Shown here in pieces: positions 341 through 18,866 of a stretch of 27,750 bases of DNA (position 1 is the stretch's first letter; each line of letters begins with the position of its first letter). Both the position numbers and the translations under genes were made by a program. Under the pieces are notes generated by a model. It was not told the DNA's origin. It saw nothing but the letters and a program-made list of their open reading frames with translations, and did not search any database. The stretch is from a virus. Where the stretch lies: UHGV virus genome UHGV-0085994. One strand, written 5' to 3'.

Positions 341-357
341 CAAAAAATTAGAGCAAT
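341..357 (-). promoter_or_regulatory. C1 repressor operator-like site (13/17 match to ATTGCTCTAATAAATTT)
   Basis: Minus strand reads ATTGCTCTAATTTTTTG between cre stop and the next ORF start. Confidence 0.45.
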
Positions 358-374
358 CATTTACGTGTTAATGG

Positions 375-1406
375 CTAATTGCCATCTTCCAGCAGGCGCA
401 CCATTGCCCCTGTTTCACTATCCAGGTTACGGATATAGTTCATGACAATATTTACGTTGGTCCAGCCACCAGCTTGCATGATCTCCGGTATTGAAACTCC
501 GGCACGGGCCATATCTCGCGCGGCTCCGACACGGGCACTGTGTCCAGACCAGGCCAGGTACCTCTGTCCAGAGTCATCCTTAGCCCCGTAAATCAATCGG
601 TGAGTTGCTTCAAAAATCCCTTCTAGGGCGCGAGTTGATAGCTGGCTGGTGGGTGATGGCGAGGCAACACCATTTTTTCTGACCCGGCAAAACAGGTAGT
701 TATTCGGATCATCAGCCACACCAGAGACAGAAATCCATCGTTCGACCAGTTTAGTTACCCCCAGGCTAAGTGCCTTCTCTACACCTGCGGTGCTAACCAG
801 CGTTTTCGTTCTGCCAATATGGATTAACATTCTCCCACCGTCAGTACGTGAGATATCTTTAACCCTGATCCTGGCAATTTCGGCTATACGTAACAGGGTG
901 TTATAAGCAATCCCCAGAAATGCCAGATTACGTATATCCTGGCAGCGATCGCTATTTTCCATGAGTGAACGAACCTGGTCGAAATCAGTGCGTTCGAACG
1001 CTAGTGCCTGTTTTGCACGTTCACCGGCATCAACGTTTTCTTTTCGGATCCGCCGCATAACCAGTGAAACAGCATTGCTATCACTTGGTCGCTGCAGCCC
1101 GGACCGACGATGAAGCATGTTTAGCTGGCCCAAATGTTGCTGGATAGTTTTTACTGCCAGACCGCGCGCCTGAAGATATAGAAGATAATCGCGAACATCT
1201 TCAGGTTCTGCGGGAAACCATTTCCGGTTATTCAACTTGCACCATGCCGCCCACGACCGGCAAACGGACAGAAGCATTTTCCAGGTATGCTCAGAAAACG
1301 CCTGGCGATCCCTGAACATGTCCATCAGGTTCTTGCGAACCTCATCACTCGTTGCATCGACCGGCAATGCAGGCAAATTTTGGTGTACGGTCAGTAAATT
1401 GGACAT
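375..1406 (-). CDS. cre: Cre site-specific tyrosine recombinase (P1 Cre, near-identical)
   Basis: 343-aa translation matches the P1 Cre sequence as I recall it, with a few substitutions (e.g. C-terminus LEDGN); loxP lies about 420 bp upstream. Confidence 0.98.
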   Translation of the reverse strand: MSNLLTVHQNLPALPVDATSDEVRKNLMDMFRDRQAFSEHTWKMLLSVCRSWAAWCKLNNRKWFPAEPEDVRDYLLYLQARGLAVKTIQQHLGQLNMLHRRSGLQRPSDSNAVSLVMRRIRKENVDAGERAKQALAFERTDFDQVRSLMENSDRCQDIRNLAFLGIAYNTLLRIAEIARIRVKDISRTDGGRMLIHIGRTKTLVSTAGVEKALSLGVTKLVERWISVSGVADDPNNYLFCRVRKNGVASPSPTSQLSTRALEGIFEATHRLIYGAKDDSGQRYLAWSGHSARVGAARDMARAGVSIPEIMQAGGWTNVNIVMNYIRNLDSETGAMVRLLEDGN

Positions 1407-1413
1407 TTGACAC

Positions 1414-1635
1414 TCAGATAATGGTTTTAAGTAAAGTGTACAGGATCGGCTCTGCCTTTACCTGTTTATGGTTCTCGTCATAGAAACGCCAACGACCGCG
1501 ACTGCGTTCTATCTTTTCTTCACCGCGCGATAATGACAGTTGACAACTATCACGATCAAACCCTTTTGCCCGCCAGTAACCACGATTTTTCTCAAGCTCA
1601 AGATGAGTGGACACTTTAGCAGCTGAATATCCCAT
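1414..1635 (-). CDS. small hypothetical ORF between loxP and cre (73 aa); may be non-coding cre leader
   Basis: ORF with strong Shine-Dalgarno (AGAGGTGA, then ATG); ends 8 bp before cre start; no recognisable domain. Confidence 0.25.
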   Translation of the reverse strand: MGYSAAKVSTHLELEKNRGYWRAKGFDRDSCQLSLSRGEEKIERSRGRWRFYDENHKQVKAEPILYTLLKTII

Positions 1636-1730
1636 TTTTCACCTCTGATTGATTGGTGGTGCTAAGTGCGCTACGCGAAATCTGGAGCATTAACACTGCC
1701 AACATTTCGCAGATTTTACGTAGCGCAACC

Positions 1731-1754
1731 TTGATCAAATGATCAAGTGATCAC
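1731..1754. promoter_or_regulatory. cluster of three Dam (GATC) sites as TGATCA hexamers at 8-bp spacing in the cre upstream region
   Basis: TGATCA at 1732-1737, 1740-1745, 1748-1753, plus another at 1801-1806; P1 cre promoters are known to be Dam-methylation sensitive. Confidence 0.5.
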
Positions 1755-1824
1755 TATTTGACCTGATAAGGTATTGAACTGTATGGATTTACAGCTAAAT
1801 TGATCATGTTCAATAACCCTTAAT

Positions 1825-1858
1825 ATAACTTCGTATAATGTATGCTATACGAAGTTAT
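1825..1858 (+). other. loxP recombination site (34 bp: 13-bp inverted repeats flanking 8-bp spacer ATGTATGC)
   Basis: Exact ATAACTTCGTATAATGTATGCTATACGAAGTTAT. Confidence 0.98.
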
Positions 1859-1901
1859 TAGGTCTGAAGAGGAGTTTACGTCCAGCTGCGCATAAAAATC
1901 A

Positions 1902-1918
1902 AGAATTATTAGAGCAAT
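1902..1918 (-). promoter_or_regulatory. C1 operator (Op99-type), 15/17 match
   Basis: Plus strand AGAATTATTAGAGCAAT = reverse complement of the operator consensus. Confidence 0.6.
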
Positions 1919-1984
1919 AAATTTTGAGAGAAAAATCCCATTCCACCAGCCAAAAACTGGATTGTTTTTCATAGTTGTTTGACA

Positions 1985-2001
1985 ATTGCTCTAATAAATT
2001 A
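1985..2001 (+). promoter_or_regulatory. C1 operator (Op99-type), 16/17 match
   Basis: ATTGCTCTAATAAATTA. Confidence 0.7.
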
Positions 2002-2239
2002 TAGTTTTGCCGCCGTTACGTAATACGACTTTGGATTCACTATTTAATGTGTCTTCAGCGTTGTAGAGCGGCTCAGAAGGAAATGAGCAAACAGGGAAAC
2101 CTTATACAACGGCATTACAGCTATGCATTGCTCATCTTACACACAGCGCAATGTTGTTAGATTACCCCAGCATGGATCATGGGTGAAACAGTAGGTCAGA
2201 GCTTCAGGCTCTGTGTTGTCAATACAGTGAGGCATAATT

Positions 2240-2438
2240 ATGGCTTTCATTCAACCAACCATCGACGACGTTAGACATTGCTCTAACGCTTTATCTGTAG
2301 ACCCTGCCGAAACCGACGCTGCCCGCGCCATTGCTGAACACTACTCAAAGATATCCAAGCATCACCCAAGACGACCTGGATGACCTCACTGACACAATCG
2401 AATATCTCATGGCAACTAACCAGTTGGACTCACAATAA
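2240..2438 (+). CDS. coi-like small ORF (C1 inactivator position) upstream of c1; apparent frameshift (47-codon frame 2240-2383, protein-like continuation in +1 frame to TAA at 2436-2438)
   Basis: ATG at 2240 with GAGG Shine-Dalgarno; location between the operator cluster and c1 matches P1 coi; combined length about 66-70 aa versus 69 aa for P1 Coi. Confidence 0.35.
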
Positions 2439-2454
2439 ATGCACTAATAAATCT
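2438..2454 (+). promoter_or_regulatory. C1 operator-like site upstream of c1 (14/17)
   Basis: AATGCACTAATAAATCT about 95 bp upstream of the c1 start. Confidence 0.4.
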
Positions 2455-2548
2455 ATTATTTTTGTTTGATCCCTCTATAATATAGGTCAGTAATGACCGG
2501 TTTTCTCAGCCGGGCGTTATTGACCATGTCAATTCTGGAGGAGGATCA

Positions 2549-3400
2549 ATGATAAATTATGTCTACGGCGAACAACTGTACCAGGAGTTCGTCAGCTTCA
2601 GGGATCTCTTTCTAAAAAAAGCTGTTGCACGCGCCCAACACGTTGATACAGCCAGCGACGGTCGTCCTGTACGCCCGGTTGTCGTTCTACCGTTCAAAGA
2701 AACTGACAGCATTCAGGCTGAAATTGATAAATGGACTTTAATGGCGCGGGAACTGGAACAGTACCCAGACCTCAATATCCCAAAGACTATTTTATATCCA
2801 GTGCCTAACATCCTTCGCGGTGTGCGCAAGGTTACAACTTATCAGACAGAAGCTGTGAACAGCGTCAATATGACCGCTGGCCGTATTATTCATCTGATTG
2901 ATAAGGACATTCGCATCCAAAAAAGCGCGGGGATCAATGAGCACAGTGCGAAATACATAGAGAACCTGGAAGCAACAAAAGAGCTAATGAGGCAGTACCC
3001 GGAGGATGAAAAATTCCGTATGCGTGTACACGGCTTTAGCGAAACAATGCTGCGCGTCCACTACATCTCCAGTAGCCCTAACTACAATGATGGTAAATCA
3101 GTTAGTTACCATGTACCGCTGTGTGGCGTGTTTATCTGCGATGAAACTCTCCGTGATGGAATCATCATCAACGGTGAATTCGAGAAAGCAAAATTTAGCC
3201 TTTATGACTCTATAGAACCGATCATCTGCGACCGCTGGCCGCAGGCAAAAATATATCGCCTGGCAGATATTGAAAATGTAAAAAAACAAATTGCCATCAC
3301 TCGCGAAGAGAAAAAGGTTAAGTCAGCCGCATCAGTTACGCGCAGCCGTAAAACCAAGAAGGGGCAGCCAGTAAACGACAACCCCGAAAGCGCGCAATAA
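2549..3400 (+). CDS. c1: C1 repressor of lysogeny (P1 immC)
   Basis: 283 aa, the length of P1 C1; N-terminus MINYVYGEQLYQEF; preceded by GGAGGA Shine-Dalgarno and an operator cluster; cognate 17-bp operators occur throughout the window. Confidence 0.9.
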   Translation: MINYVYGEQLYQEFVSFRDLFLKKAVARAQHVDTASDGRPVRPVVVLPFKETDSIQAEIDKWTLMARELEQYPDLNIPKTILYPVPNILRGVRKVTTYQTEAVNSVNMTAGRIIHLIDKDIRIQKSAGINEHSAKYIENLEATKELMRQYPEDEKFRMRVHGFSETMLRVHYISSSPNYNDGKSVSYHVPLCGVFICDETLRDGIIINGEFEKAKFSLYDSIEPIICDRWPQAKIYRLADIENVKKQIAITREEKKVKSAASVTRSRKTKKGQPVNDNPESAQ

Positions 3401-3432: not shown

Positions 3433-4548
3433 TTATTCAGCCGCCACCGGTTTTAACAAGCCAGCATCGAGCAGTTTACGCGTCAACCACTGCTGGCCTT
3501 TACCCGTTAATTGAGGCGTCAACCGTATCTGGTAGCCATCTTCATCATCCAGCACCACTTCTTTCACCGTGAAATACCCCGCGTTGATGTACTGCTGGAA
3601 CGGCACATTTTTACGTCCACCGGACGCTATCAGGATGCCGTTCTCCCGTAACCAGGCAAACAGCGCGTTTTGCTTAAGTCCAACAACCTTTGCAAAATTC
3701 CCAATCAGGATCCCTTTAGCTACTGATACCCGGTCGGCAAAATCGACTTTAGGAGCGGCGGCCACCAGCTGCTGATTTAGCTGGTGGGCTTTCTGTTCCA
3801 GAAGCTGCTTTTGTTCAGCCAGTTCGGCAGCCAGGCGCAGAGCTTCTGGAAGCGTCTGGGGGATTGCAACCGGTTGCTGTTCTTTTTGTCGGAAGTAGCT
3901 GTCTTCCAGTTTTTCAAAGAATGCCCATGCCTGATCGGTTTCGATCATTTTAGCGTGGCGGGCTGCGCCGCGTTCCGTCCAGAGGATGAGTGAGCGGGCT
4001 TTAGGAGAGATAGGATTTTGTGAGTTACTTAAAGTCACTCGCAAATTGTTCAAATCATCTCCAATAACTTTATAGAAATGCTTGCCTTCACAAAAACGTT
4101 CAGCATTACGGGAAAAGTTCTTCTTGATGTTATCCGCATCTGTCCCATACCCCTTAGCAAGGATCTTAGTTGTCACTACACGCACTCCCAGCCATTCCAG
4201 AACGGGAATTTCATCAGACTGATTCTGAACAACCACCAGCTCCGATTCCTGAACTGAAGGTGCATGAGTTTTTTCTGATTTAACGTTAGTTGCTTTCATT
4301 CTGTGTGCCTCCTTGCGTGTTTCGGCTGCGACGGTTGCGTAATTCAGATGCCCCTGTTCGAGCAGGTATTCGCGGATATCAGACAACAGAATGCGGTGAA
4401 CAGCGTTCTTGTCCTTTCTCCGGTAAAGTTGTTTGGTGATCATGAAGTAGTTGGCAATAACGCCCGGTATATCCCTGGTACTGATACAGGATGTGTGCTG
4501 TTCAATTGCCTCAATCATTTCTTCACGGGTGACTAATGACGTTCTCAT
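3433..4548 (-). CDS. ant: antirepressor Ant (Bro-N/KilA-N-like N-terminal region, KilAC/ANT-like C-terminal domain)
   Basis: 371 aa; translationally coupled to the upstream 73-aa ORF (4-bp overlap); sits downstream of a c4-like antisense arrangement, as in the P1 immI operon. Confidence 0.65.
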   Translation of the reverse strand: MRTSLVTREEMIEAIEQHTSCISTRDIPGVIANYFMITKQLYRRKDKNAVHRILLSDIREYLLEQGHLNYATVAAETRKEAHRMKATNVKSEKTHAPSVQESELVVVQNQSDEIPVLEWLGVRVVTTKILAKGYGTDADNIKKNFSRNAERFCEGKHFYKVIGDDLNNLRVTLSNSQNPISPKARSLILWTERGAARHAKMIETDQAWAFFEKLEDSYFRQKEQQPVAIPQTLPEALRLAAELAEQKQLLEQKAHQLNQQLVAAAPKVDFADRVSVAKGILIGNFAKVVGLKQNALFAWLRENGILIASGGRKNVPFQQYINAGYFTVKEVVLDDEDGYQIRLTPQLTGKGQQWLTRKLLDAGLLKPVAAE

Positions 4549-4766
4549 AGTCCCTCCTGAGCAGAAGCGTTAACAGGGAGGCACCAGTAACTGAGAGAGT
4601 TGCGCGAATCAGTGGAAAAGCGGGCAGAGAAAATGCAGGGAGCGTCAGGAAGCTGAGAACGGGCCTCATCTTCTGTCGGTGCAATAACGAAGTGATAGTG
4701 ACGTTTCTGGCAGGAATAGAAGCGCCAGATGAATTCAGGATGAGTTGGGGTAGGGACAGTAGCCAT
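4545..4766 (-). CDS. icd: Icd-like small protein (immI operon leader gene)
   Basis: 73-aa ORF overlapping ant start; Shine-Dalgarno AAGGAGG coincides with a sequence complementary to the upstream antisense element. Confidence 0.5.
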   Translation of the reverse strand: MATVPTPTHPEFIWRFYSCQKRHYHFVIAPTEDEARSQLPDAPCIFSARFSTDSRNSLSYWCLPVNASAQEGL

Positions 4767-4799
4767 AATGGCAGCCTCCTTTGACTAAGTTAAGGAGCT

Positions 4800-4890
4800 A
4801 CCGCGTGAGGTCTCAATCTCAATGGCGGTAGCACTGACTGGGTTGAGACTACCGGCGTCAAAGGGAACCGGCCTGCCTTTCGGCAGCCCA
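4800..4890 (-). ncRNA. c4: c4-type antisense RNA (candidate), with loops complementary to the icd leader
   Basis: Minus-strand elements GUCUCAA (4843-4849) and CCUUUGAC (4857-4864) lie in two predicted hairpin loops and are complementary to UUGAGA(C) repeats (4810-4823) and GUCAAAGGAGG (4776-4786, icd RBS); same-sense copies lie upstream at 5000-5006 and 4981-4988, giving the a1/b1 - a'/b' - a2/b2 layout described for P1 c4. Boundaries are approximate. Confidence 0.4.
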
Positions 4891-4950
4891 GCCAGCACTA
4901 CCATTGATTTCGGAGCTAAACGCTACGTATGGCTGTGCGATGGCATGACA

Positions 4951-4975
4951 CAAAAAAAGACGCTTTCGGCGTCTG
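4951..4975 (-). terminator. rho-independent terminator (minus strand) downstream of pacB
   Basis: AGACGC-loop-GCGTCT hairpin followed by U7 on the minus strand. Confidence 0.5.
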
Positions 4976-5105
4976 TGTCGCCTTTGACATTATCCGGGGT
5001 CTCAATCCCGGCACCCGTTTTAATGAGGTGCCTGATAAGCATAAACCGAAAATGCCTCAAGGCGCAAGAGGTCAGGTTCAATGTAACATCGGTAGTTAAA
5101 AAACA

Positions 5106-5122
5106 CAATTTATTAGAGCAAA
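5106..5122 (-). promoter_or_regulatory. C1 operator (Op51-like, upstream of c4/icd/ant), 15/17
   Basis: Plus strand CAATTTATTAGAGCAAA. Confidence 0.6.
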
Positions 5123-5125
5123 TAT

Positions 5126-6610
5126 TCATTCATTAAGCCATGCCAGAGCTTCATCAACCTGCGCTTCGTCTTCGACGCTAAGCACTTCATCCTGGGGAAC
5201 ATAATCCGCCAGCATAGCGAAACAATATGTATCCCAATGGTCTGGTGAGTGCAGGTTGAGTTTTTTCTTCATATCCTCCTTACTCATCACCTTCCATTGA
5301 CCTGCGGAGTTAATCCCTACAGGGATTTTCGACGCTTCCTCAATAGTTTCATTACCCTTATCCAGTCTCATACGACCAGATTTTACGGCCTCTGCGGCTT
5401 GAACGTTGGCATAAGCACGTTTATCAAAGTACAGGCTCTTATCTTCACGGCTATGCATCTTTTTACCCCAGCGTATACGCTGTACGGTAATACCATAATA
5501 CTCGTACATCAGATCCGCCGTTGCTTTACCCAGGCCATCGCCGTCTATCGCTATGGTGATATTTGGGAATCGCTCAGGATTACATTCTGCGAAAATTTTG
5601 GCGGCAAGCTGCGTTTCTGTAACGTCTGTGTATTCCAGCATTCGATAGTTGATTACACGGCGTTTATTTCGCTGGCCGGACACCATCATGATATTGATAA
5701 CGGACTTATCCCGTCCCGTACCACCAGCAACGTCCACACATGCAAGCCAGCCCCATCCTTTGGCAATCTTGACTTTCCGCCGCGTCGCACGTTCAACCTC
5801 ATCACGTCCAAGAAGGAAGCCATCCTGTGATTTAGGGAATAGTCCGCGTACCTTAATCATGTACATAGGGTTATCACGCCCGCCGTACTCCGCCAGCTTC
5901 ATTTTGATAAATGCTGGCGTTACCAGCGGTGATTCCTCACTGTTAAGCGTGATCGCCGTATAAACGCCATCAGGGTTACCAGGACGCTTGGCCAGTTTAT
6001 GGTGAGTATCGTAGAAATAGCCGCTTGGGCGTGTAGGCTGTGACAGTAATAAGATGCGGTTATCCTGTCCGGTAAGAGCACCAGTGATGATACCGAAAGC
6101 TCTATCACTGACACCGGAGGCTTCATCGATAATATACAGAAGATGATCTGCGTGTTCACCGGCGAGAGCTTCTTCACTTCCCAGACGAAAGCCCTTCGGT
6201 ACTACAGTCCATACACCTTTACCAGTAACCTCATATAAAGCGGTTTCTGTCAGAACAAAATAATCAGCAAGCCATGGAAAACGGCTGGTGGCAGTAGCCC
6301 AGTTTATCTTGATGTACTTGAATATACCGGTCATTACCTGCTGAATTTTGTTCGCAACGATAATGGCACGGGCACCGGGATACATGATTATGAACAACAT
6401 GATCATGATAGAAGTCATGTCTGATTTCCCGGTACCGTGGCCAGACGAAACAGATGTCTTGCTACCCTGTTCCTGCACAGACTCAATAATCAGATCCTGC
6501 TGCCAGGTAGGTGTTTTGCCGAACAAAACATCAGCGGCCGCAATCCAGTCATAACGATATAGCGCCACCAGCTCGCGCCAACGTGGATCCGTTACGCAAC
6601 TTCTGGCCAT
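5126..6610 (-). CDS. pacB: terminase large subunit (PacB-like)
   Basis: 494 aa, the length of P1 PacB as I recall it; Walker A-like SGHGTGKS; directly downstream of the small-terminase-like ORF. Confidence 0.8.
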
Positions 6611-7278
6611 TAATCATCATCCCCGTATAGCTTGCGGGTAACTTCTTCGTCTTCCTCCTCGTCTTCGTCCAGGTCTTGTTCCAGCCATGGGTCGTTTGAT
6701 ACACCTTCAGTATCAACATCTCCATAACCGCCTGTATCAACGATATCGGCGATTTCTTCCCTACGCTGCTCAATCCACAATGCGGCATCGGCGCGGCGGT
6801 TGGCGGCCCGTTCTCGCGCGATTTTATCCAGATCTTCAAGTGATGGAGCGCCAGATGCTGTTTGGTTTTCCTCATCATCGGTATTGGTCTTAGGAGCACG
6901 CAGATCGGCTTTGATTTGCTCCAGCATCAGGGGCGGCACTTTCCCGCCATGCGCCTCGATGAATTCAGCTGCTTCCAGCACTGACCAGTTATTTTCACGC
7001 TTTCGTTCGTATGCCAGCTTAACAATGCCAGCTTGCCCCATAGACAAAGCGTGCTTTTCCGCCTCCCGGCTTTCTTTTCGATAGTTATTCCGGATGCTGT
7101 AAATGGTGTTGATCAGGCTGCTTATCTGCGCGGAACAGCTGTTTAGCATGCTCGCGATACGGTATTCAGGCGGAGTACCTTCATCATCGTCTTTTTGCTG
7201 ATCGCGCATTTCCTGCACCAGGCGAATACACGTAAACATCGCGCTTATCGACATCCAGATGCGGGTATTCCTTTTCAA
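6610..7278 (-). CDS. terminase small subunit-like (PacA-like), downstream frame; acidic C-terminal tail
   Basis: 222-aa ORF overlapping the upstream 73-aa ORF in a different frame; C-terminus DEDEEEDEE typical of small terminase; stop overlaps pacB start. Confidence 0.45.
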
Positions 7279-7405
7279 GGATTGCTGCGAGTTCTTTCGC
7301 TGATAGAAGAGATTTAGTGCGGATCATGTAATCCGCAATCTCGTACGATGTTATTCGTGAGTGATTTATTTCCATGAAGTGGCGTCCCTGCCAGTTAAGT
7401 AACAT
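7184..7405 (-). CDS. terminase small subunit-like, upstream frame (probable N-terminal part of a split pacA-like gene)
   Basis: 73-aa ORF with an HTH-like segment; overlaps 6610..7278 by 95 nt in another frame; C1 operator-like site just upstream. Confidence 0.35.
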
Positions 7406-7475
7406 CCTGTCACCTACTGATTAGCCCATGTCAACTAATCAACGTGGAATATAATACCCTCGATTAAAGAAATAG

Positions 7476-7492
7476 CAATACATTAGAGCAAT
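7476..7492 (-). promoter_or_regulatory. C1 operator-like site upstream of the pacA-like gene (14/17)
   Basis: Plus strand CAATACATTAGAGCAAT. Confidence 0.4.
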
Positions 7493-7493
7493 T

Positions 7494-8537
7494 TTATCTA
7501 ACACTCGACGAGTAACTTGTGATAGCGCCGACTCCAAGCGCGTAATCAAAGAACAATCGTTGATGCATCGCCAGCCTACCGTGCGTCTTCTCCCAATTAT
7601 CGCGGTCACGCTCAATATCACGCTGGCATGACTGGCACAGAGGAATTGCGTAAATGTCATGCGCGCATAATCGACTATGACGAACGATATAAGGCGTAAT
7701 GTAAGCGCCAGCTCCCGCCGCTCCACACCCACAGCATGGACGGGAAGCAACAAAGTCCATGTACTCAGGTAATTTTAGCGATTGCAGTTTTGGTATTTTG
7801 AAATGCGCCATGCCAGGGTCGGAGTCAACATCCACAGGGCATACTTTTGCACGCATCGGCGCGGCGCGTTCTTCCATCATCTGAACATATGCTGTAGCGC
7901 GATCGTCATACGGGCGAATATCCGCCTCTTTCAGAGGTCCGCTATCCTGCGTTGCGGCTTTCATCTTATTTATTGATATACGGCAAACTTCTTCCGGCAT
8001 CAGGTGCATCATGTTGCGCATGAAAGCCCACCAGCACAGTTCTTGAATACTTAAATCATGGCCATCTGAAAGCCCCATTTCCTGACGGGCGACATCCAGT
8101 ATCCAGTTAACGCGATTATTATGCAGCGTTTCTTTCAGCTCATTAAAACCACGCATCCGGTAATGGTTATCGTGATGCCAGCACAACAACACCGCGCTAT
8201 TGTCTCGTTCTGCGTGGACAATATGGTTGTCACACCAGCTACGATCTGCGGCCTGGCATTGCCCCTCTTTCCTGCGCAACCACGCCACCAGCGCGTCAAT
8301 TCCACCAATACGGCGAAACAGTTCATCGCTGTTAAAAAACGGCTGCAACGCCTCATTTGTTGCCATAGTTTGCTCGGAAACAACGAGGCCGTCGTCCATG
8401 TGCTCGATTAACTCACGCGGCACCGGCTCCATAATAAATTTACGGCCAGCCTCCACCAGCTTTCTGACTTCCTGATCCACTTTAAATGTGGCGACGCCAA
8501 GCTCTTTTTGTACAAAGGGAGTAATTACGGCTTTCAC
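7494..8537 (-). CDS. hypothetical Cys/His-rich protein (possible HNH-like or zinc-binding nuclease next to terminase)
   Basis: 347 aa; motifs CWHHDNH and CCGCG...HSRLCAHD...CQSCQ; no domain confidently recognised. Confidence 0.55.
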
Positions 8538-8564
8538 ATCACACCTTTCATCACTGATTGGGCT

Positions 8565-8765
8565 TTATCTGCTGCCCGGCATTCTCTGTTTAAGCACAAC
8601 CATTTCCTGACGGCATAACACAGCAATAGCGGTCCTGGCACCAATTTGCTTACCAACCAGGTATTGCTTTACCTCGCGGCGACTCACGCCATCAAGAAGC
8701 ATCTTTAACGCTTCACGGGACAACTTGTTGTATTTACGTGCCATTAATCTACTCCGCGGAACCAT
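8565..8765 (-). CDS. small protein with possible LuxR/GerE-like helix-turn-helix (66 aa)
   Basis: [32 protein letters not shown] pattern; overlaps doc 3' end by 17 nt. Confidence 0.35.
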
Positions 8766-9129
8766 ACAATCTACGTAACGTGTCGGCGACAGAAGATACA
8801 GATATCTCTCCGGTCGCAGCCCCTACGGTAAGGTCTGCCAGTTCTGGTGAATCAAATACCTGCACCCCGTTACGGCGTAGAAATAGCAGCGCACTGTTTA
8901 GCGCGGTACGCTTATTGGCATCATTGAATATATGCCCTCTCGCAGTAGCCACCAGGTAGGTGGCGGAGACTTCGAAAAGGTCGGTGATATCTTCGTAGGC
9001 AACTCTGGCCTGAACTCTCCCGATAATGGCCTCTGCCCTACCCGGATCTGACATTCCCGGCAGGCCGCCGTAGCGGCTTATATTCGCATCATGAAGCGCA
9101 ATAAGTTCTTCCGGTGATATATGCCTCAT
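8749..9129 (-). CDS. doc: Doc toxin (Fic-fold kinase, death on curing)
   Basis: 126 aa; near-identical to P1 Doc as recalled; Fic motif HIFNDANKR. Confidence 0.95.
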
Positions 9130-9350
9130 TATCGGTTAACCAGTTCCTTGTTGGTGGAGTCCAGAGTGTCAAACAGGGATGCAAATTCAGCATCCAGCGC
9201 CGCTTTTTTGTAGGCTTCGAAAGTAGCCTTGCTGACAATTACTGCTGGCTCACGGCCTCTGCGGGTGATTTCAACCTCTTCCCCGGCCTCAACATTGTTG
9301 AGCACTTCAGAAAGGTTGCCGCGCGCGGTACGGAAGTTAATGGATTGCAT
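9129..9350 (-). CDS. phd: Phd antitoxin (prevents host death)
   Basis: 73 aa from the internal Met ([13 protein letters not shown]...), matching P1 Phd; the ORF track starts two codons earlier. Confidence 0.95.
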
Positions 9351-9910: not shown

Positions 9911-10162
9911 TTATTTTTTGGCTATATCTTCTTTCTGATATACCGGATCGTTTCCTTTTGGCAGCAGGAGGCTTAACTGCCGGTAGTGCCGTAGCCGTTC
10001 CATGAAATAGGTGCGCAGGTTCTCAGGTTGCTCACGGGCTACCTGTTCCGCTATGACGGGTATGTTCAATCGCTCTTTGTAGGCAACCCCCCTGGCAGCC
10101 AGGTCAACGTTAACTTTATTCCTTTCTTCCTGGCTTTTAGCTGCTATGTTCCAGTTGCTCAT
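9911..10162 (-). CDS. hot: Hot, homolog of DNA polymerase III theta subunit (HolE)
   Basis: 83 aa; [35 protein letters not shown] aligns with E. coli theta. Confidence 0.8.
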
Positions 10163-10164
10163 GT

Positions 10165-10380
10165 TTAAGGCTCACATTTCCAGATGGTATTCTGAACACC
10201 CGAACCGGGCGTAAGATGAGGGTTAGCGTTCGCACTATGCTGATATACAGCTTTGGACTTTCCATATTGCTGACAGGCTTTGTCTGCGGTTTTTTGCAGG
10301 CTGTCCAGCCCATACCAGCCATCTGACTGGATGCTAACATTTTCGCCGTCATTGTATTGCACCATCGCACACCCAGACAT
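10165..10380 (-). CDS. small hypothetical protein, possibly a lipoprotein with an unannotated start
   Basis: 71-aa ORF; in-frame upstream codons encode a hydrophobic signal-like stretch ending ILAMSGC but no ATG/GTG/TTG start before the stop. Confidence 0.3.
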
Positions 10381-10513
10381 AGCTAAAATCGCACCGACAA
10401 TACCGCTTTTCCAAAAAGCTCTAATTAGGTCATTCGTTGCCTAATGTCCGAACTGCTAAAGCATCCAAGTTGCTGTAGAATCACCGCCAATTACATAAGC
10501 CTGAAATAAGTGG

Positions 10514-12076
10514 ATGAAAATGACAAGTATTCAACAACGTGCAGAGCTTCATCGTCAAATCTGGCAAATTGCTAACGATGTCAGGGGTTCGGTCGATGGA
10601 TGGGATTTTAAGCAATACGTTCTGGGCGCACTTTTCTACCGTTTTATCAGCGAAAATTTTTCCAGCTATATTGAAGCCGGTGATGACAGTATCTGTTATG
10701 CGAAACTGGATGACAGCGTAATTACTGATGACATTAAAGACGATGCCATCAAAACCAAAGGTTACTTCATCTACCCAAGTCAGCTTTTCTGCAACGTAGC
10801 TGCGAAAGCAAATACCAATGACAGACTGAATGCAGATTTAAACAGTATCTTCGTTGCTATCGAAAGTTCTGCTTACGGTTATCCTTCAGAAGCTGACATC
10901 AAAGGTTTGTTTGCTGATTTCGATACCACCAGTAACCGCCTGGGTAACACCGTTAAAGATAAAAATGCCCGCCTGGCTGCGGTTCTGAAAGGGGTTGAAG
11001 GGTTAAAACTTGGTGACTTCAACGAACATCAGATTGACCTGTTCGGTGATGCCTATGAGTTCCTGATTTCTAACTATGCGGCAAATGCCGGTAAGTCAGG
11101 CGGTGAGTTCTTTACACCGCAGCACGTCTCCAAGCTGATTGCACAACTGGCTATGCACGGGCAGACCAGCGTTAACAAAATCTACGACCCGGCAGCGGGT
11201 TCCGGCTCACTGTTGTTGCAGGCGAAAAAACAGTTTGATAACCACATCATCGAAGAAGGCTTTTTCGGTCAGGAAATCAACCATACGACCTATAACCTGG
11301 CGCGTATGAACATGTTTTTGCACAACATCAACTACGACAAGTTTGATATCAAGCTGGGCAATACGCTGACTGAACCGCACTTCAGAGATGAAAAACCGTT
11401 TGATGCCATCGTTTCTAACCCGCCGTATTCGGTGAAATGGATTGGCAGCGATGACCCGACGCTGATTAACGATGAGCGTTTTGCCCCGGCTGGCGTTCTG
11501 GCCCCCAAATCCAAAGCTGACTTTGCGTTTGTATTACATGCGCTGAACTATCTTTCGGCCAAAGGTCGTGCTGCGATTGTCTGCTTCCCGGGTATTTTTT
11601 ACCGTGGCGGCGCAGAGCAGAAAATCCGTCAGTATCTGGTCGATAATAACTATGTCGAAACCGTAATTTCACTGGCTCCGAACCTGTTCTTTGGCACCAC
11701 CATTGCCGTAAACATTCTGGTTCTGTCCAAACATAAAACGGATACCAACGTTCAGTTTATTGATGCCAGCGAACTGTTCAAAAAAGAGACCAACAACAAT
11801 ATCCTGACCGATGCCCATATCGAACAAATTATGCAGGTATTCACCAGCAAGGAAGATGTTGCTCATCTGGCAAAATCTGTCGCGTTTGAAGCCGTTGTAG
11901 CGAATGACTATAACCTGTCGGTGAGCAGCTATGTAGAATCGAAAGATAACCGCGAAATTATCGATATTGCTGAGCTGAATGCGGAACTGAAAACCACGGT
12001 CAGCAAAATCGACCAGTTGCGCAAAGATATTGATGCGATTGTGGCTGAAATTGAAGGCTGCGAGGTACAGAAATGA
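10514..12076 (+). CDS. hsdM: type I restriction-modification system, DNA methyltransferase subunit HsdM (type IC, EcoR124-like)
   Basis: 520 aa; N6-adenine methyltransferase motif NPPY(SVKW); followed by hsdS with 4-bp overlap. Confidence 0.95.
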
Positions 12077-13221
12077 GCGAGTTGAGTTATCTGGAAAAAT
12101 TGCTGGATGGAGTTAAGGTTGAGTGGAAAACACTAGAGAAAGTGCTTAAACGAACTAAAGGCACAAAAATAACCGCTGGGCAGATGAAAGCTCTTCACAA
12201 AGATAATGCGCCGCTTAAAATTTTTGCAGGGGGAAAAACAGTAGCCTTTGTTGACTTTAAAGATATTCCAGAGAAAGATATTAATAGAGAGCCATCGATC
12301 ATTGTTAAATCCAGAGGTATTATCGAATTCGAGTATTACGATAAACCATTCTCTCACAAAAATGAGATGTGGTCATATCACTCAAATAATGATGCGATAA
12401 GCATAAAGTATATTTATTACTTCCTAAAAATAAATGAAGGATATTTCCAGAAAATTGGGGGTAAAATGCAAATGCCACAAATTGCAACTCCTGATACAGA
12501 TAAGTTTGAAGTTCCAATCCCTTGCCCGGATAATCCGGAAAAATCCCTTGCCATCCAGTCTGAAATCGTTCGGATTCTGGATAAATTTACTGCAGTTACC
12601 GCTGAGCTTACCGCTGAGCTTAACATGCGTAAAAAACAGTACAACTACTATCGCGACCAGTTACTGAATCTTGAGGGCAGGGAAAATACTCGAGAAATGA
12701 GGATAGGTGATATTTATGATTTTCAGTATGGAACAGGCAATACAATTCCTAAATCTGGAGGGCAATATCCTGTTTATGGTAGCAACGGGATTGTAGGCTC
12801 CCATGACAAATATAACAGCGAAGACTCGCCTGTTATTGGTCATATAGGTGCTTACGCAGGAATCGTTAACTGGGGCCAAGGTAAGCATTTTGTTACATAC
12901 AACGGAGTTATTTGTAGGCACAAATCGAAGGAAGTTCTTCAAAAATACGCCTACTATTTATTACTTTTACAAGATTTCGGTTCAAAATCTAATAGTGCAT
13001 CACAGCCTTTTGTTTCATATAACATATTAAATGCTCCTATTGTTTTGGTTCCCCCTTTACAAGAGCAAGCTCGTATCGTCGCAATACTCGATAAATTCGA
13101 CACACTGACCAACTCCATCACCGAAGGTCTCCCGCGTGAAATCGAGTTGCGCCAGAAACAATACGAGTACTATCGTGATTTACTGTTCAGTTTCCCAAAA
13201 CCTGAAACAGCCAGTAATTAA
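12073..13221 (+). CDS. hsdS: type I R-M specificity subunit HsdS (two target-recognition domains; central TAELTAEL repeat)
   Basis: 382 aa; conserved repeats LDKF..(Q/K)QYxYYRD after each TRD; central TAEL x2 as in EcoR124I-type subunits. Confidence 0.95.
12598..12621 (+). repeat. 12-bp tandem direct repeat ACCGCTGAGCTT x2 encoding TAEL-TAEL in hsdS
   Basis: Directly visible; in the EcoR124 family the copy number of this repeat sets the spacer length of the recognition sequence. Confidence 0.75.
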
Positions 13222-13342
13222 TTGAGCATTTTTACAGACCGGACCACCTTAACATCCGGTCAGTATATAGACTATTTTCTACACGACGGAAGTCGCCCTT
13301 AACTCCCTTCCGGCCCTTGCCAGACGGCACAAAGGATGCGCT

Positions 13343-16300
13343 ATGACTCATCAAACACACACCATTGCTGAATCCAATAACTTTATCGTCCTTGATAAGT
13401 ACATCAAAGCTGAGCAAACAAGCGACAGCTACCAGAGCGAATCGGACCTGGAACGTGAACTGATTCAGGACCTGCGGAATCAGGGCTATGAATTTATATC
13501 CGTAAAATCACAGTCGGCGATGCTAGCCAATGTTCGGGAACAGCTTCAGAACCTCAATGGTGTGGTGTTTAATGACAGCGAGTGGCGGCGTTTCACGGAG
13601 CAGTATCTGGATAACCCGAGCGATGGCATTCTGGATAAGACCCGTAAAATCCATATCGACTATATTTGCGACTTTATTTTTGATGACGAGCGTCTTGAGA
13701 ACATCTATTTGATAGATAAAAAGAATCTCATGCGCAATAAGGTGCAGATTATCCAGCAGTTTGAACAGACGGGTTCTCATGCTAACCGTTATGACGTCAC
13801 GATCCTGGTTAATGGTTTACCGCTGGTGCAAATCGAACTAAAAAAACGCGGGGTGGCGATTCGTGAGGCTTTCAACCAGATACATCGTTACAGTAAAGAG
13901 AGTTTTAACAGCGAAAATTCCCTGTTTAAGTATCTGCAGCTGTTCGTCATTTCCAACGGCACTGATACCCGTTATTTTGCCAACACCACAAAGCGCGATA
14001 AAAACAGTTTTGACTTCACCATGAACTGGGCTAAATCAGACAATACACTGATTAAAGACCTCAAAGACTTTACCGCTACCTTTTTCCAGAAACATACTCT
14101 GCTTAATGTTCTGGTGAACTACAGCGTTTTTGACAGCAGTCAGACACTACTGGTAATGCGACCGTACCAGATTGCCGCCACCGAGCGCATTCTGTGGAAA
14201 ATTAAGAGTTCCTTTACAGCGAAGAACTGGTCAAAACCGGAAAGCGGTGGGTATATCTGGCACACTACCGGTTCTGGTAAAACCCTCACCAGCTTTAAAG
14301 CCGCGCGTCTGGCAACAGAGCTGGACTTTATTGATAAAGTCTTCTTTGTGGTCGACAGGAAAGACCTCGATTACCAGACCATGAAGGAATATCAGCGTTT
14401 TTCGCCAGACAGCGTCAACGGCTCGGAAAATACCGCAGGTCTTAAACGAAATCTGGATAAGGACGATAACAAAATTATCGTCACTACTATTCAGAAACTC
14501 AATAACCTGATGAAAGCAGAAAGCGATCTGCCTGTATATAATCAGCAAGTGGTGTTTATATTTGATGAATGCCACCGCAGCCAGTTTGGAGAAGCGCAGA
14601 AAAACCTGAAGAAGAAATTCAAACGCTATTATCAGTTTGGTTTTACCGGCACCCCTATTTTCCCGGAAAACGCCTTAGGCTCAGAAACAACCGCCAGCGT
14701 ATTTGGTCGTGAATTGCATTCGTATGTAATTACCGATGCGATTCGTGACGAAAAAGTGCTCAAATTCAAGGTGGACTACAACGATGTGCGGCCACAGTTT
14801 AAGTCTTTAGAGACAGAAACTGACGAGAAAAAACTGAGTGCGGCTGAAAATCAGCAGGCGTTTCTTCATCCCATGCGTATTCAGGAAATCACGCAATATA
14901 TTCTGAATAATTTCCGCCAGAAAACCCACCGTACCTTCCCTGGCTCAAAAGGTTTTAATGCTATGTTGGCAGTGAGCAGCGTGGATGCCGCGAAAGCCTA
15001 TTATGCGACGTTTAAACGGTTACAAGAAGAAGCCGCTAATAAATCGGCTACCTATAAACCGCTGCGTATTGCGACAATCTTCTCCTTTGCCGCCAATGAA
15101 GAACAAAATGCCATTGGTGAAATTTCCGATGAAACTTTTGATACCAGCGCAATGGACAGCAGTGCTAAAGAGTTTCTGGACGCTGCAATTCGTGAATATA
15201 ACAGCCATTTTAAAACTAACTTTAGCACCGACAGTAACGGTTTTCAGAACTACTATCGTGATTTAGCCCAGCGGGTTAAAAATCAGGATATCGATCTGCT
15301 AATTGTCGTGGGGATGTTTTTAACCGGCTTCGATGCTCCAACATTAAACACGCTATTCGTCGATAAAAACTTGCGTTTTCACGGCCTGATGCAGGCATTC
15401 TCCCGCACCAACCGCATTTATGACGCGACTAAAACCTTCGGTAATATTGTCACGTTCCGGGATCTGGAACGCTCAACCATTGATGCCATAACGCTGTTTG
15501 GTGACAAAAATACCAAAAATGTGGTTTTAGAAAAGAGTTATGCAGAGTATATGGAAGGCTTTACTGATGCTGCCACTGGTGAAGCTAAACGCGGCTTCAT
15601 GACAGTAGTTTCAGAACTGGAACAACGGTTCCCTGACCCTACCAGTATTGAAAGTGAAAAAGAGAAGAAAGACTTCGTTAAACTGTTTGGCGAATACCTG
15701 CGTGCCGAGAACATCCTGCAAAACTATGATGAATTTGCCACGCTAAAAGCCCTGCAACAAATCGATCTTAGCGATCCTGTTGCGGTAGAAAAATTCAAAG
15801 CAGAACATTATGTGGATAATGAAAAGTTCGCTGAATTGCAAACAATTCGTCTCCCTGCTGATCGCAAGATTCAGGATTATCGTTCTGCCTATAACGATAT
15901 TCGCGACTGGCAGCGCCGTGAGAAAGAAGCTGAGAAAAAAGAGAAATCAACCACTGACTGGGATGACGTAGTTTTTGAGGTCGATTTGCTGAAGTCTCAG
16001 GAAATAAACCTGGATTATATCCTTGGACTGATTTTCGAACACAATAGACAAAATAAAGGCAAGGGCGAAATGATCGAAGAGGTCAAACGCTTAATTCGTT
16101 CAAGCCTGGGGAACCGGGCGAAAGAGGGCCTGGTGGTCGATTTTATTCAGCAAACGAACCTGGATGATTTACCAGACAAAGCCAGTATCATTGAGGCATT
16201 CTTTACGTTTGCTCAACGCGAACAGCAACGTGAAGCAGAAGCATTGATAAAAGAAGAAAATCTCAATGAAGATGCAGCAAAACGCTATATTCGCACGTCT

Positions 16301-16459
16301 TTAAAACGCGAATACGCCACCGAAAATGGCACAGAATTAAACGAAACATTACCAAAACTTAGTCCGTTGAATCCGCAATATAAAACGAAAAAACAGGCAG
16401 TTTTCCAGAAAATCGTCTCGTTTATTGAGAAGTTTAAAGGCGTAGGCGGAAAAATATAG
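13343..16459 (+). CDS. hsdR: type I R-M restriction endonuclease/translocase subunit HsdR
   Basis: 1038 aa; helicase motif I TGSGKT and DECH box; gene order M-S-R typical of type IC. Confidence 0.95.
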
Positions 16460-16538
16460 CCCAATTCGTATTTTTCTTGCGGGTTCTTAATTAAACCCGC
16501 AAGAGACCGTGGGGTTCCAAATGGCTAATATACTCCCC

Positions 16539-16625
16539 TTACCCATGCGCGACAATGCTGCCAAAAGTGATAGAGAACAGCCAGAAATAGATCGCGGCCA
16601 TAATGATTTTGAATGCCGTGTTCAT
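16539..16625 (-). CDS. 28-aa hydrophobic peptide (MNTAFKIIMAAIYFWLFSITFGSIVAHG), candidate small membrane protein or type I toxin-like peptide
   Basis: ATG with AGGAG Shine-Dalgarno at 7-nt spacing; single predicted transmembrane helix; C1 operator about 85 bp upstream; below the ORF-track length cutoff. Confidence 0.4.
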   Translation of the reverse strand: MNTAFKIIMAAIYFWLFSITFGSIVAHG

Positions 16626-16653
16626 ATTTTCAGCTCCTGTGATTGATTGGATA

Positions 16654-16684
16654 CATGCCGCGCCTTGCGGCATGTTTTTATTTT
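16654..16684 (+). terminator. rho-independent terminator (plus strand), likely end of the hsdR transcript
   Basis: CATGCCGC-loop-GCGGCATG hairpin followed by TTTTTATTTT. Confidence 0.5.
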
Positions 16685-16707
16685 CACTTTCTCTGTTTTA
16701 AAAATCA

Positions 16708-16724
16708 AGATTTATTAGAGCAAT
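16708..16724 (-). promoter_or_regulatory. C1 operator, 16/17 match
   Basis: Plus strand AGATTTATTAGAGCAAT; lies between the HAD-like gene stop and the small peptide gene. Confidence 0.65.
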
Positions 16725-17230
16725 TATTGTTGATGGAGAAGCGCGTTTTCATACTCCCTGACCATTAACGTAAGTACGCCGTGACTCCTGAAAACACGCG
16801 CCACTTCAATCTTATCTTCCAGCGCGAACGCAATTTTACTTAGACCAATTTTCTTCAGGAGATCAATCTTTGCTGGACCGTCATTTCTGTCATCGGTGGC
16901 AGGACGCATAGATAGCAAAGGCTCAGCCCCATTTGTTACGTGCTTACGCAACCAGGCTCGTGTTTTATCCCTGGCTATCTCACAGCGCCCGGTTACAAAC
17001 CAGAGGGTGTAAATGCCGGACAACTGGCGCACCATATCAATAACTGGAGTGATGGGAGCATCAGTGTCACAGGCAAGGTTAAACTCGTTCCAGTGCTCTG
17101 TTAATGCACCTTTGCCAGGTGGTGGAAGTAAATGCAGCCTGTCTTCCGTTGCCTCTGATATCGTCCCATCAATATCTACTATGACGATGTACGGACGTTC
17201 CTGGTGTGCGTGTTTATTGAAAATACTCAA
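16724..17230 (-). CDS. HAD-superfamily phosphatase-like protein (DxDGT motif; 5'(3')-deoxyribonucleotidase or polynucleotide 3'-phosphatase-like)
   Basis: 168 aa; N-terminal VIVDIDGTIS matches HAD motif I; TTG start with GAGGAGG Shine-Dalgarno. Confidence 0.6.
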   Translation of the reverse strand: MSIFNKHAHQERPYIVIVDIDGTISEATEDRLHLLPPPGKGALTEHWNEFNLACDTDAPITPVIDMVRQLSGIYTLWFVTGRCEIARDKTRAWLRKHVTNGAEPLLSMRPATDDRNDGPAKIDLLKKIGLSKIAFALEDKIEVARVFRSHGVLTLMVREYENALLHQQ

Positions 17231-17302
17231 ATGCCCTCCTCATTGGACGAAAAAAATGCTGGTGGGAGCACTCCACCAGCATTAAAAGTGACACTGTAAC
17301 TA

Positions 17303-18565
17303 TCAGCGAACGTAAATAGTGCCGCCGTTCTCTTTTTCCCATGCATCGCTACGTGCATAGCAAACATCGAGAAGTCTTCTTGCCGCAGTTTCCTCTAAAC
17401 CCAATTCGACAACCAACTGCTCATGACGGCGGGTAACCACATCAAACAGGGTATGCAGCCCTTTAGTTGCCAGATCATCAATGAATTCCGGTTCGAACGG
17501 CAGCTCTGCATCTGCCAACATAACCTCTTGCGCCCACTCAACTCGACGGACCAGTTCCGGGCGGCGGCTTTCCATCTCTTTACAGATCAATTCATGGAAG
17601 AACTCTACCCAACCTTCCGGCTGAAACTCGCGGAAAATTGCCAACGGCTGGAAGTTTGGCATCAACCATTCGTTGATTCGGATATCAATGGCATAGCCCA
17701 TGTCGCAGCAGAACTGATAAGCAAAGTCCAGCTTAGAAACGATATAAGGACGCTCGTTATTGAACTCTTTAGGCGATGAGATCCCATAAGCCAGGAGGCG
17801 CGGGAAGAAGGAGATTTGCCCTAACGTCGGATGAAGTTTGCTTGCAGGGAAACGGCGCTCAGTAATGCCATACATTTCCTTCTTGAGCGTCGCAAATTTG
17901 GCATTCTCATTAACCAGCGCGGTAACCTCTGCTTTTTTATTAGCAAATGCCACGCGCGCTTCGCTTGCATCTTTAATAGTTTTTTTGAGCTGTTGGTTAA
18001 GGTCGGCGACCTGCTTACGCAGTTCCTGTCGCTCGCTTTTAGCTTTGTTATAGCGTTTCTCAAGGTTAAAAGGATCAAGTTTCATGATCTCTTTATATTG
18101 AGATTTTAGCGTTGAAATCTGTGAGTTCCGCAGTTCAACCATCGCGGTCATTTCATTGAGTTTTGTTTCCAGCTCAATGCTTATACGTTCGGCATTATCA
18201 GCACGCTGGTTGGCGTCATGCGTCGCATCGTCGATCGCGTCCTGTTGCTGGCGTTTCAAATGTTCAATTTGCAGCTGAAGCTCTTCAATTTCTTTACCCT
18301 TCAGACCGAGATCCAACTGCATATTTTCAGCTGCATCTACCAGGGAGTTATGGCTATCAGCTTCTGCGTTATAAACATCAATAAGCTGTGCGTGAAGCAT
18401 CTCCGCTGACTGAACCGCATTATCAAAAAAACGTGCTGTGAGGTCATCACAACTAACGCGGCGTTGCGCAGCCCGGATGTTCTGGATAATGGCCGGGATA
18501 CCGGCATTCAGGACATCAGGGATAGATACATTTTCGATTGATTGGTTTTGTGCTGAAGTGCTCAT
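17303..18565 (-). CDS. hypothetical protein: N-terminal coiled coil (about 230 aa) plus uncharacterised C-terminal globular domain
   Basis: 420 aa; heptad-like Q/E/K/L-rich N-terminal half; no recognisable catalytic motif in the C-terminal half. Confidence 0.65.
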   Translation of the reverse strand: MSTSAQNQSIENVSIPDVLNAGIPAIIQNIRAAQRRVSCDDLTARFFDNAVQSAEMLHAQLIDVYNAEADSHNSLVDAAENMQLDLGLKGKEIEELQLQIEHLKRQQQDAIDDATHDANQRADNAERISIELETKLNEMTAMVELRNSQISTLKSQYKEIMKLDPFNLEKRYNKAKSERQELRKQVADLNQQLKKTIKDASEARVAFANKKAEVTALVNENAKFATLKKEMYGITERRFPASKLHPTLGQISFFPRLLAYGISSPKEFNNERPYIVSKLDFAYQFCCDMGYAIDIRINEWLMPNFQPLAIFREFQPEGWVEFFHELICKEMESRRPELVRRVEWAQEVMLADAELPFEPEFIDDLATKGLHTLFDVVTRRHEQLVVELGLEETAARRLLDVCYARSDAWEKENGGTIYVR

Positions 18566-18566
18566 T

Positions 18567-18785
18567 TCAAAGTTCCGTATTAGCTTGTGCTTCGGTCATT
18601 TTTCCTAAGTATGAAGGTGGAAGGACTACGCAATTTGTATCCAGTCCCTCACCTATGGCAGCCTGTAAAATTCTGGCTAAGGTGAGTCTCTTGTTGCGAT
18701 ACCTGGTGATGACATGCCTGATACCGCCGGTCGGCGTAACAAAGGCGATCAGCCAGTAGTGATATTTCCGTCGGAATGGCCACAT
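18567..18785 (-). CDS. small hypothetical protein (72 aa) translationally coupled to the 420-aa ORF
   Basis: ORF ends at the 420-aa start; begins 15 bp from a C1 operator. Confidence 0.3.
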   Translation of the reverse strand: MWPFRRKYHYWLIAFVTPTGGIRHVITRYRNKRLTLARILQAAIGEGLDTNCVVLPPSYLGKMTEAQANTEL

Positions 18786-18799
18786 AGTGCACCTTATAG

Positions 18800-18816
18800 A
18801 TTGCTCTAATAAAAAA
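18800..18816 (+). promoter_or_regulatory. C1 operator-like site (14/17)
   Basis: ATTGCTCTAATAAAAAA. Confidence 0.5.
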
Positions 18817-18836
18817 CGTGATGAGTGTACATCACG
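18817..18836. terminator. bidirectional hairpin terminator between two minus-strand operons
   Basis: CGTGATG-AGTGTA-CATCACG flanked by an A-run upstream and a T-run downstream. Confidence 0.45.
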
Positions 18837-18848
18837 TTTTAAAAATAT

Positions 18849-18865
18849 GGAACTATTAGAGCAAT
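18849..18865 (-). promoter_or_regulatory. C1 operator-like site (13/17), inverted relative to 18800-18816
   Basis: Plus strand GGAACTATTAGAGCAAT. Confidence 0.4.
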
Positions 18866-18866
18866 A

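Follow-up and report, generated by a model that had tools for sequence, protein, structure and literature searches.

Predicted C1 operators dispersed over a rearranged fragment of a P1-like plasmid prophage

Asymmetric 17-bp operators of the C1 repressor are scattered over the genome of phage P1 (PMC8546580), and the lytic switch leads to the induction of the P1 genes that C1 controls (PMC4713147). Such a dispersed network is a textbook feature of P1, and as such already known. Here we analyse the virus genome UHGV-0085994, a stretch of 27,750 nucleotides (the window), in which an earlier reading of the sequence (the original prediction) had proposed copies of a 17-bp motif that is the published consensus of these operators (PMC8546580). 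We find eleven sites and consider them very probably to be operators of the C1 repressor of a P1-type plasmid prophage, to which C1 would be expected to bind. This reading is based on synteny with P1, the P1 annotations, a near-identical repressor, an excess of the motif, and operator cores that are kept beside variable flanks.

Gene map of the window

The window was compared by megablast with phage genomes and by direct blastn with the P1 genome (AF234172). P1-family phages match most of it: vB_EcoM-673R5 covers 90% of the window at 96.7% identity, RCS47 59% at 98.1% and P1 about 50% at 94%, the synteny with P1 holding at 94-98% identity in the two comparisons. By its sequence, the window corresponds to a rearranged fragment of a P1-like plasmid prophage in the orientation opposite to the P1 reference, and the operator set described below makes its identification as such a prophage secure.

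In the blastn map, the window opens with an IS1 end (1-53), followed by c8, cre, cra and half of lox (54-1841; P1 1788 down to 1) and by immC and c1 (1842-3399; P1 94800 down to 93232). The c1 repressor gene (2549-3400, plus strand) is intact and encodes 283 aa, 280 of which are identical to P1 C1.100. A segment without P1 counterpart at this place (3433-5125) precedes pacB and the 3' part of pacA (5128-7234), then the 5' part of lpa with Olpa, pdcB, pdcA, doc, phd and humD (7233-9861), hot (9926-10153), and hsdM, hsdS and hsdR (10514-16459). Further along lie Op88, pap, pmgS, pmgR, Op86a/b, pmgQ, ppp and part of pmgP (16535-20391; P1 84482 down to 80626), a complete IS26 (20392-21211; transposase 20444-21166), and sit without its 3' end, pmgB, tub, pmgC, simC and part of simB (21212-27701; P1 41240 up to 47759). 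A second IS1 end (27696-27750) closes the map; both window ends are one and the same IS1 end, in inverted orientation.

Eleven sites and the units behind them

Starting from the 20 monovalent C1 operators annotated in AF234172, we built a weight matrix from the 11 that have no homologue in the window, to avoid circularity (Oref, Omat, Ossb, Oc4, OrepL, Orlf, Odmt, Obana, Obanb, O26 and Oppp). With this independent matrix nine sites score 15.0-22.8 bits, while the matrix operators themselves score 18-28 bits. Chance level was estimated from 200 first-order Markov randomisations of the window, scanned on both strands: at a threshold of 14 bits, these contain a mean of 0.25 sites and a maximum of 3. 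Measured against the asymmetric 17-bp consensus ATTGCTCTAATAAATTT, seven sites show three mismatches or fewer where 0.24 are expected, and the exact 11-mer ATTGCTCTAAT is found in seven copies, compared with about 0.01 expected by our own arithmetic with equiprobable bases. The matrix scan that the original prediction had proposed as a check thus places nine sites above background, and 2277-2293 at background.

All ten sites originally listed are present, on both strands as claimed, one of them to be read as 2277-2293 rather than 2277-2294. They match ATTGCTCTAATAAATTT at 12-16 of 17 positions, the announced range of 13-16 being right for nine and 2277-2293 reaching only 12. The announced number of about 13 copies is too high: with Oc1b (2449-2465, minus strand) added to the ten, the total is eleven, and two matrices run over the whole window revealed no further site above chance. 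Candidates at 12985-13001, 27488-27504, 27534-27550, 16833-16849 and 23459-23475 were rejected, with 8-12.5 bits against a mean best random score of 12.4. A C1 site at the hsdM promoter (10415-10431, plus strand; AAAGCTCTAATTAGGTC) was also rejected, since 11/17 matches and 7 bits are at chance level. This stretch includes the operator core GCTCTAAT and lies 83 nt upstream of hsdM; it is about 45-60 nt upstream of the likely extended -10 of hsdM (TGTAGAAT at about 10475-10482) and does not overlap it. As originally stated, no site above chance is found at hsdMSR, phd-doc or humD. The window also contains two perfect LexA-box patterns (CTGT-N8-ACAG; 0.31 expected by chance), one at 1779-1794 beside lox, where P1 annotates a LexA site over P2coi, and one at 9833-9848 upstream of humD.

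Of the eleven sites, nine match protein_bind features labelled 'phage repressor C1' in GenBank AF234172, in both position and orientation; seven of these nine are identical in sequence to the P1 site, and Oc1b and OpmgRa are each one base off. Orientation follows the controlled transcript at nine of the eleven, the exceptions, Oc1b and OpmgRb, being second members of pairs. In the descriptions that follow, promoter positions for Oc1e, Oc1d, Oc1ab, Olpa, OpmgT and OpmgRa are transferred from the P1 annotation.

Oc1e (formerly Op99e; 1902-1918, minus strand; 15/17) is identical to the P1 site and at the same position, adjoining the -35 of P4cre on the cra-cre side of lox. Oc1d (formerly Op99d; 1985-2001, plus strand; 16/17, 22.6 bits), again identical to the P1 site, is flanked by the -35 (TTGACA, 1979-1984) and the -10 of P1coi and would control imcA-imcB-coi-c1. 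Oc1a (formerly Op99a; 2438-2454, plus strand; 14/17, 20.7 bits; identical to P1) forms, over the c1 promoter Pc1, one half of the bivalent operator Oc1ab. It is overlapped by the weak second half, Oc1b (formerly Op99b; minus strand; 10/17), a positional homologue that reads ACAAAAATAATAGATTT here and ACGAAAATAATAGATTT in P1 and is at background level by the matrix, as is P1 Oc1b itself (-0.6 bits). Oc1c (formerly Op99c; 2277-2293, plus strand; 12/17, 5.2 bits) falls within imcB/coi coding sequence and within a perfect inverted repeat of 7 bp (CGTTAGA / TCTAACG) at 2269-2288; although background by sequence alone, it is counted as an operator because its sequence and position are those of the annotated P1 Oc1c.

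Olpa (formerly Op94; 7476-7492, minus strand; 14/17), identical to P1 Olpa, overlaps the -35 of Plpa, a promoter that a pattern scan found independently (TTGCTA-16-TATTAT at 7478-7451), and under the match GenBank M95666 likewise carries a 'c1 repressor binding site'. OpmgT (formerly Op88; 16708-16724, minus strand; 16/17, 22.8 bits; identical to P1 OpmgT) comes directly after pap and, by the P1 annotation, overlaps the pmgT promoters. OpmgRb (formerly Op86b; 18800-18816, plus strand; 14/17, 18.3 bits; identical to P1 OpmgRb) stands just upstream of the pmgR start and downstream of PpmgR, whereas OpmgRa (formerly Op86a; 18849-18865, minus strand; 13/17, 15.2 bits) overlaps the -35 of PpmgR, would control pmgR-pmgS-pap, and differs from P1 by one change (ATTGCTCTAATAGTTCC here, ...AATTCC in P1). 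Between OpmgRb and OpmgRa sits an 11-bp perfect inverted repeat (18813-18823 / 18830-18840). The idea that the sites are often paired around hairpins holds for this pair and no other: we reject hairpins as a general feature of operator pairs, as only the Op86a/b pair brackets a strong inverted repeat. An inverted-repeat check between 1902-1918 and 1985-2001 returned nothing but A/T-run repeats, with no real hairpin, and Oc1c is inside its 7-bp repeat.

To follow the sites among relatives, Cre was used as a probe to collect 80 related IMG/VR contigs with 10 kb on each side, and the seven sites within reach were aligned. Only 7 of 77 operator-core columns vary, compared with 144 of 560 flank columns within 40 nt (Fisher p = 9e-4; 26-80 contigs), a comparison that is conservative because some flanks are coding. 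The core is invariant at Oc1d (71 loci), and Oc1a is invariant too (70 loci); that of Oc1e is nearly so, with one of 11 columns varying at a minor-base frequency of 0.003 (70 loci), and at Olpa three of 11 columns vary, with a mean minor-base frequency of 0.007 (62 loci). Oc1c is invariant in 70 loci, which is uninformative since it is coding sequence.

Together with the P1 annotation and the 280/283 identity of C1, these observations agree with the original view of the sites as C1 operators of a P1-type phage placed before early and lytic units. In the mechanism that we propose, C1 would recognise the asymmetric 17-bp sequence either at isolated sites or, in Oc1ab, at two overlapping ones, and bound C1 would block the sigma-70 promoters that the sites overlap or adjoin, TTGCTC within the operator probably serving in several cases as the -35 hexamer. 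The units silenced in lysogeny would comprise the imcA-imcB-coi-c1 transcript, c1 itself (autoregulation via Oc1ab over Pc1), cra-cre, lpa, the activator of all late promoters, pmgR-pmgS-pap, the pmgT unit and probably c8. In the lineage of this element they would also include a second antirepressor module (C4 RNA-icd-ant).

Several of these units are damaged. The C1 inactivator gene coi (2240-2449, plus strand) is frameshifted by an 11-bp deletion at 2358/2359 that removes TCAGGAGTACC, present in the alignment in P1, P7 and phiW39; the frame shifts after about 40 codons and translation stops after about 47. The same deletion was seen in none of 69 related loci. The gene behind Olpa, taken originally for a pacA-like gene, is actually a truncated lpa, the late promoter activator (7184-7405, minus strand; Pfam BPP1_LPA), identical at 58 of 59 residues to the N-terminus of P1 Lpa (150 aa) and then out of frame. 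Here a 934-bp deletion (P1 90164-91097; junction 7233/7234; 6610-7405) fuses 59 lpa codons to the 3' part of pacA, and takes out LPpac, the pac cleavage site and the first ~190 codons of pacA; its junction is absent from the 80 related IMG/VR loci and from 682 matching PLSDB plasmids. An assembly artefact is a possible source of the coi and lpa-pacA lesions. Taken as it reads, the sequence suggests that neither late-gene activation nor DNA packaging should be possible for the element.

The ORF downstream of cre is c8 (49-324, minus strand), 83/90 identical to P1 C8 (103 aa) and cut near its 3' end by IS1 (junction 53/54). The unit behind OpmgRa/b, which had been described as a HAD/coiled-coil operon under C1 control, would keep that control and is identified as pmgR (18567-18785), pmgS (17303-18565) and pap (16724-17230), all on the minus strand and together 98% identical to P1. 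Downstream of OpmgT, hsdMSR (10514-16459; flanks 9926-10380 and 16460-16535) replaces P1 lxr, upfM-O and pmgT-V. The 28-aa peptide originally assigned to this site does exist as a 28-codon hydrophobic ORF (MNTAFKIIMAAIYFWLFSITFGSIVAHG; 16539-16625, minus strand), but in P1 this is the pmgT 5' leader, and OpmgT there controls pmgT-pmgU-pmgV. It is the only reading frame left downstream of OpmgT, which otherwise faces the hsdR 3' end; the frame is also open, unannotated, in P1 (84392-84475), with one Ser/Gly change. It could encode a small membrane peptide or be a mere leader. The ORF has a good ribosome-binding site and is preceded by a 9-bp G+C-rich hairpin (16653-16675) with a T-run on the plus strand only. 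Finally, IS26 joins P1 80626 (pmgP) to P1 41240 (sit, whose last 84 codons are lost) in inverted relative orientation, and at this junction the region expected to hold the P1 operators Oppp and O26 is cut away. The ppp-IS26 junction is common to several Escherichia fergusonii plasmids.

In this element, part of the regulon therefore reads as vestigial, and the sites may be operators by descent that are now idle, the C1 circuit of a decaying remnant controlling no lytic programme. We hold this to be a distinct possibility, if somewhat the less probable side of the question. It draws on the lesions just described: the coi frameshift, the lpa-pac-pacA deletion, c8 cut by IS1, IS26 between pmgP and sit, and hsdMSR in place of pmgT-V. 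On the other hand, c1 is intact and the operator cores are unmutated; the second antirepressor module and pmgR-pmgS-pap are also intact and still need repression, icd being a cell-division inhibitor and ant an antirepressor in P1; and the window is only part of the element. What the sequence looks like is a prophage remnant locked in the repressed state, which has kept its repressor and operators and lost induction, late-transcription and packaging functions.

Two sites beyond the reference annotations

Two sites, at 341-357 and 5106-5122, go beyond the annotations of P1, P7 and RCS47, a modest addition to the known set. The first is a C1-operator-like site, ATTGCTCTAATTTTTTG (minus strand; 13/17; 17.0 bits with the independent matrix), located between the stop of cre (375) and the start of c8 (324). 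The original prediction was right to place a site before the ORF downstream of cre, the gene being c8; the site is unannotated in P1 and P7. Both carry at this position ATTGCTATAATTATTTG, containing ATTGCTATAAT (P1 1485-1501; P7 1485-1501). Among the relatives, the core ATTGCTCTAAT is found in 72 of 80 loci, beside 22 different versions of the upstream 18 nt, and the majority version of the site is ATTGCTCTAATTCTTTG. Five loci have the P1/P7 version and three have ATTGCTCTGAT; the P1/P7 variant occurs on two flank backgrounds, P1-type and P7-type. The contrast between core and flank is the strongest of all sites: mean minor-base frequency is 0.008 in the core and 0.28 in the 17 nt that separate the site from the cre stop (80 loci). 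Selection on the core has therefore left a clear footprint.

The core might be conserved as a promoter element of c8 and not as a C1 operator, in which case C1 may not bind; this we find rather unlikely. The only promoter-like element at 341-357 lies within the site and falls just short of an extended -10 (TGnTATAAT), from which TGCTCTAAT differs by a single base; P1 and P7 have exactly TGCTATAAT, and the ~20 nt from the site to the c8 start codon would suit a short-leader mRNA. Moreover, the site fits the consensus poorly in its 3' half (TTTTTG), with 13/17 overall, and neither genome annotates an operator upstream of c8. In a -10 hexamer, however, the A at this position is the most critical base, and 72 of 80 loci keep a C there, which agrees with selection acting on an operator core and not on promoter strength. 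Conservation extends to all 11 core bases, including the ATTG that a -10 element could dispense with. The kept C and the kept ATTG would thus favour the operator, and the two readings are compatible in the form of an operator overlapping a weak promoter.

That the cre-c8 site is genuinely an operator of C1 and absent from the reference annotations, with c8 regulation in P1 and P7 atypical of the family, is a tentative proposal to which we give a little under an even chance. A literature search did not find an operator named 'Oc8', the P1 genome paper of Lobocka et al. 2004 being outside its reach. If the proposal is true, c8, a putative lysogeny-establishment gene, would be under C1 control in most natural P1-like plasmids, and in the laboratory phages P1 and P7 one C-to-A substitution would have converted the operator core TGCTCTAAT to the consensus extended -10 TGCTATAAT. 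In either case, a conserved, unannotated candidate operator stands before c8 and differs in both laboratory reference phages.

The second site, TTTGCTCTAATAAATTG (5106-5122, minus strand; 15/17; 22.3 bits), is the counterpart of P1 Oc4/Op51. Together with the following ~25 nt it aligns with Oc4/Op51 and the promoter P51a; in the predicted P51a-like promoter, read from the alignment, the operator overlaps the -35 (TTGTGT) and the extended -10 reads TGTTACATT. The site heads an immI-type module, all on the minus strand, made of an isrK-like leader RNA (4953-5031; Rfam isrK, 60.2 bits), a C4 antisense RNA (4821-4908; Rfam RF01695, 75.4 bits against a gathering score of 45), icd (4545-4766), a homologue of P1 icd, and ant (3433-4548), whose product has ANT/KilAC and ORF6N domains. 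This composition bears out the original assignment as c4-icd-ant. Icd and ant overlap by 4 nt, and their part of the module has 64-81% nucleotide identity to P1 icd-ant1/2 (blastn), while the c4-icd part is 86% identical to the immI region of phage D6.

The module occupies 1.7 kb between c1 and pacB; of 61 related contigs that cover the c1-pacB junction, 26 have it inserted there. RCS47 has the module at 99.6% identity, JL22 at 91% and vB_EcoM-673R5 at 89%, and for pSvP1 homologues of icd-ant have been reported at a similar location (PMC6906374). All 26 module-bearing loci have the site, and positions 1 and 12 are the only ones to vary in it; in the RCS47 record no operator is marked at the module. 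RCS47 has additional places that match the module, and the usual immI is probably present there too. As a gene set the module is not new; its operator, by clear homology to Op51, appears to be a new member of the network. By analogy with P1, Ant would antagonise C1 and the C4 RNA would block icd-ant translation. The module indicates that accessory antirepressor modules of the P1-like family arrive with their own C1 operator.

Weighing the sites against known systems

Some observations weigh against the eleven sites as C1 operators. By the matrix, 2277-2293 and 2449-2465 are at background, and it is homology that includes them. At the position of 341-357 neither P1 nor P7 has an annotated operator; their copies have the C-to-A change in the core, and the conservation of the site could reflect a promoter element instead. 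As several downstream genes are inactivated, repression at the sites before them would be without present function. We infer C1 binding and repression at each site of this element, above all at 341-357 and 5106-5122; for the P1 sites, binding is documented in the literature cited by PMC8546580 and according to the notes of GenBank AF234172. That the sites are chance matches of an A+T-rich pattern in A+T-rich intergenic DNA, as the random-level scores of 2277-2293 and Oc1b and the extra 11/17 match upstream of hsdM might suggest, is refuted for the nine strong sites and vanishingly improbable for the set, given their 15-23 bits against 0.25 expected at 14 bits, the seven exact 11-mer copies, the nine sites positionally identical to annotated P1 operators, and cores conserved beside variable flanks.

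The reading as C1 operators places the window close to P1 and P7, with which it shares the asymmetric 17-bp consensus and a repressor that is 99% identical. The operators annotated in AF234172 are Oref, Omat, Ossb, Oc4, OrepL, Orlf, Odmt, Obanab, O26, Oppp, OpmgRa/b, OpmgT, Olpa and Oc1a-e. Nine window sites lie at corresponding positions relative to corresponding genes and promoters, seven of them identical in sequence to the P1 site, a comparison with P1 operator positions having been proposed as a check in the original prediction. The window differs by two additional sites, one before c8 and the other before the second immI module. Unlike in P1, the units behind Olpa and OpmgT are truncated or replaced and Oppp and O26 are cut away; OpmgT is kept although its P1 operon is gone. 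The arrangement phd-doc ... hsdMSR ... Op88-pap is also that of vB_EcoM-673R5, and the flanks of the hsd loci EcoDXXI and R124/3 match these border sequences according to the P1 annotation.

The second module has the order of parts of P1 immI (Oc4/Op51 - P51a/P51b - c4 RNA - icd - ant1/ant2), but P1 immI lies between sim and kilA and the second module between c1 and pacB. Their leaders also differ, that of P1 immI matching Rfam c4-a1b1 and that of the second module isrK. The C4 loop sequences of the second module are not those of P1, and because of this difference the two are probably heteroimmune.

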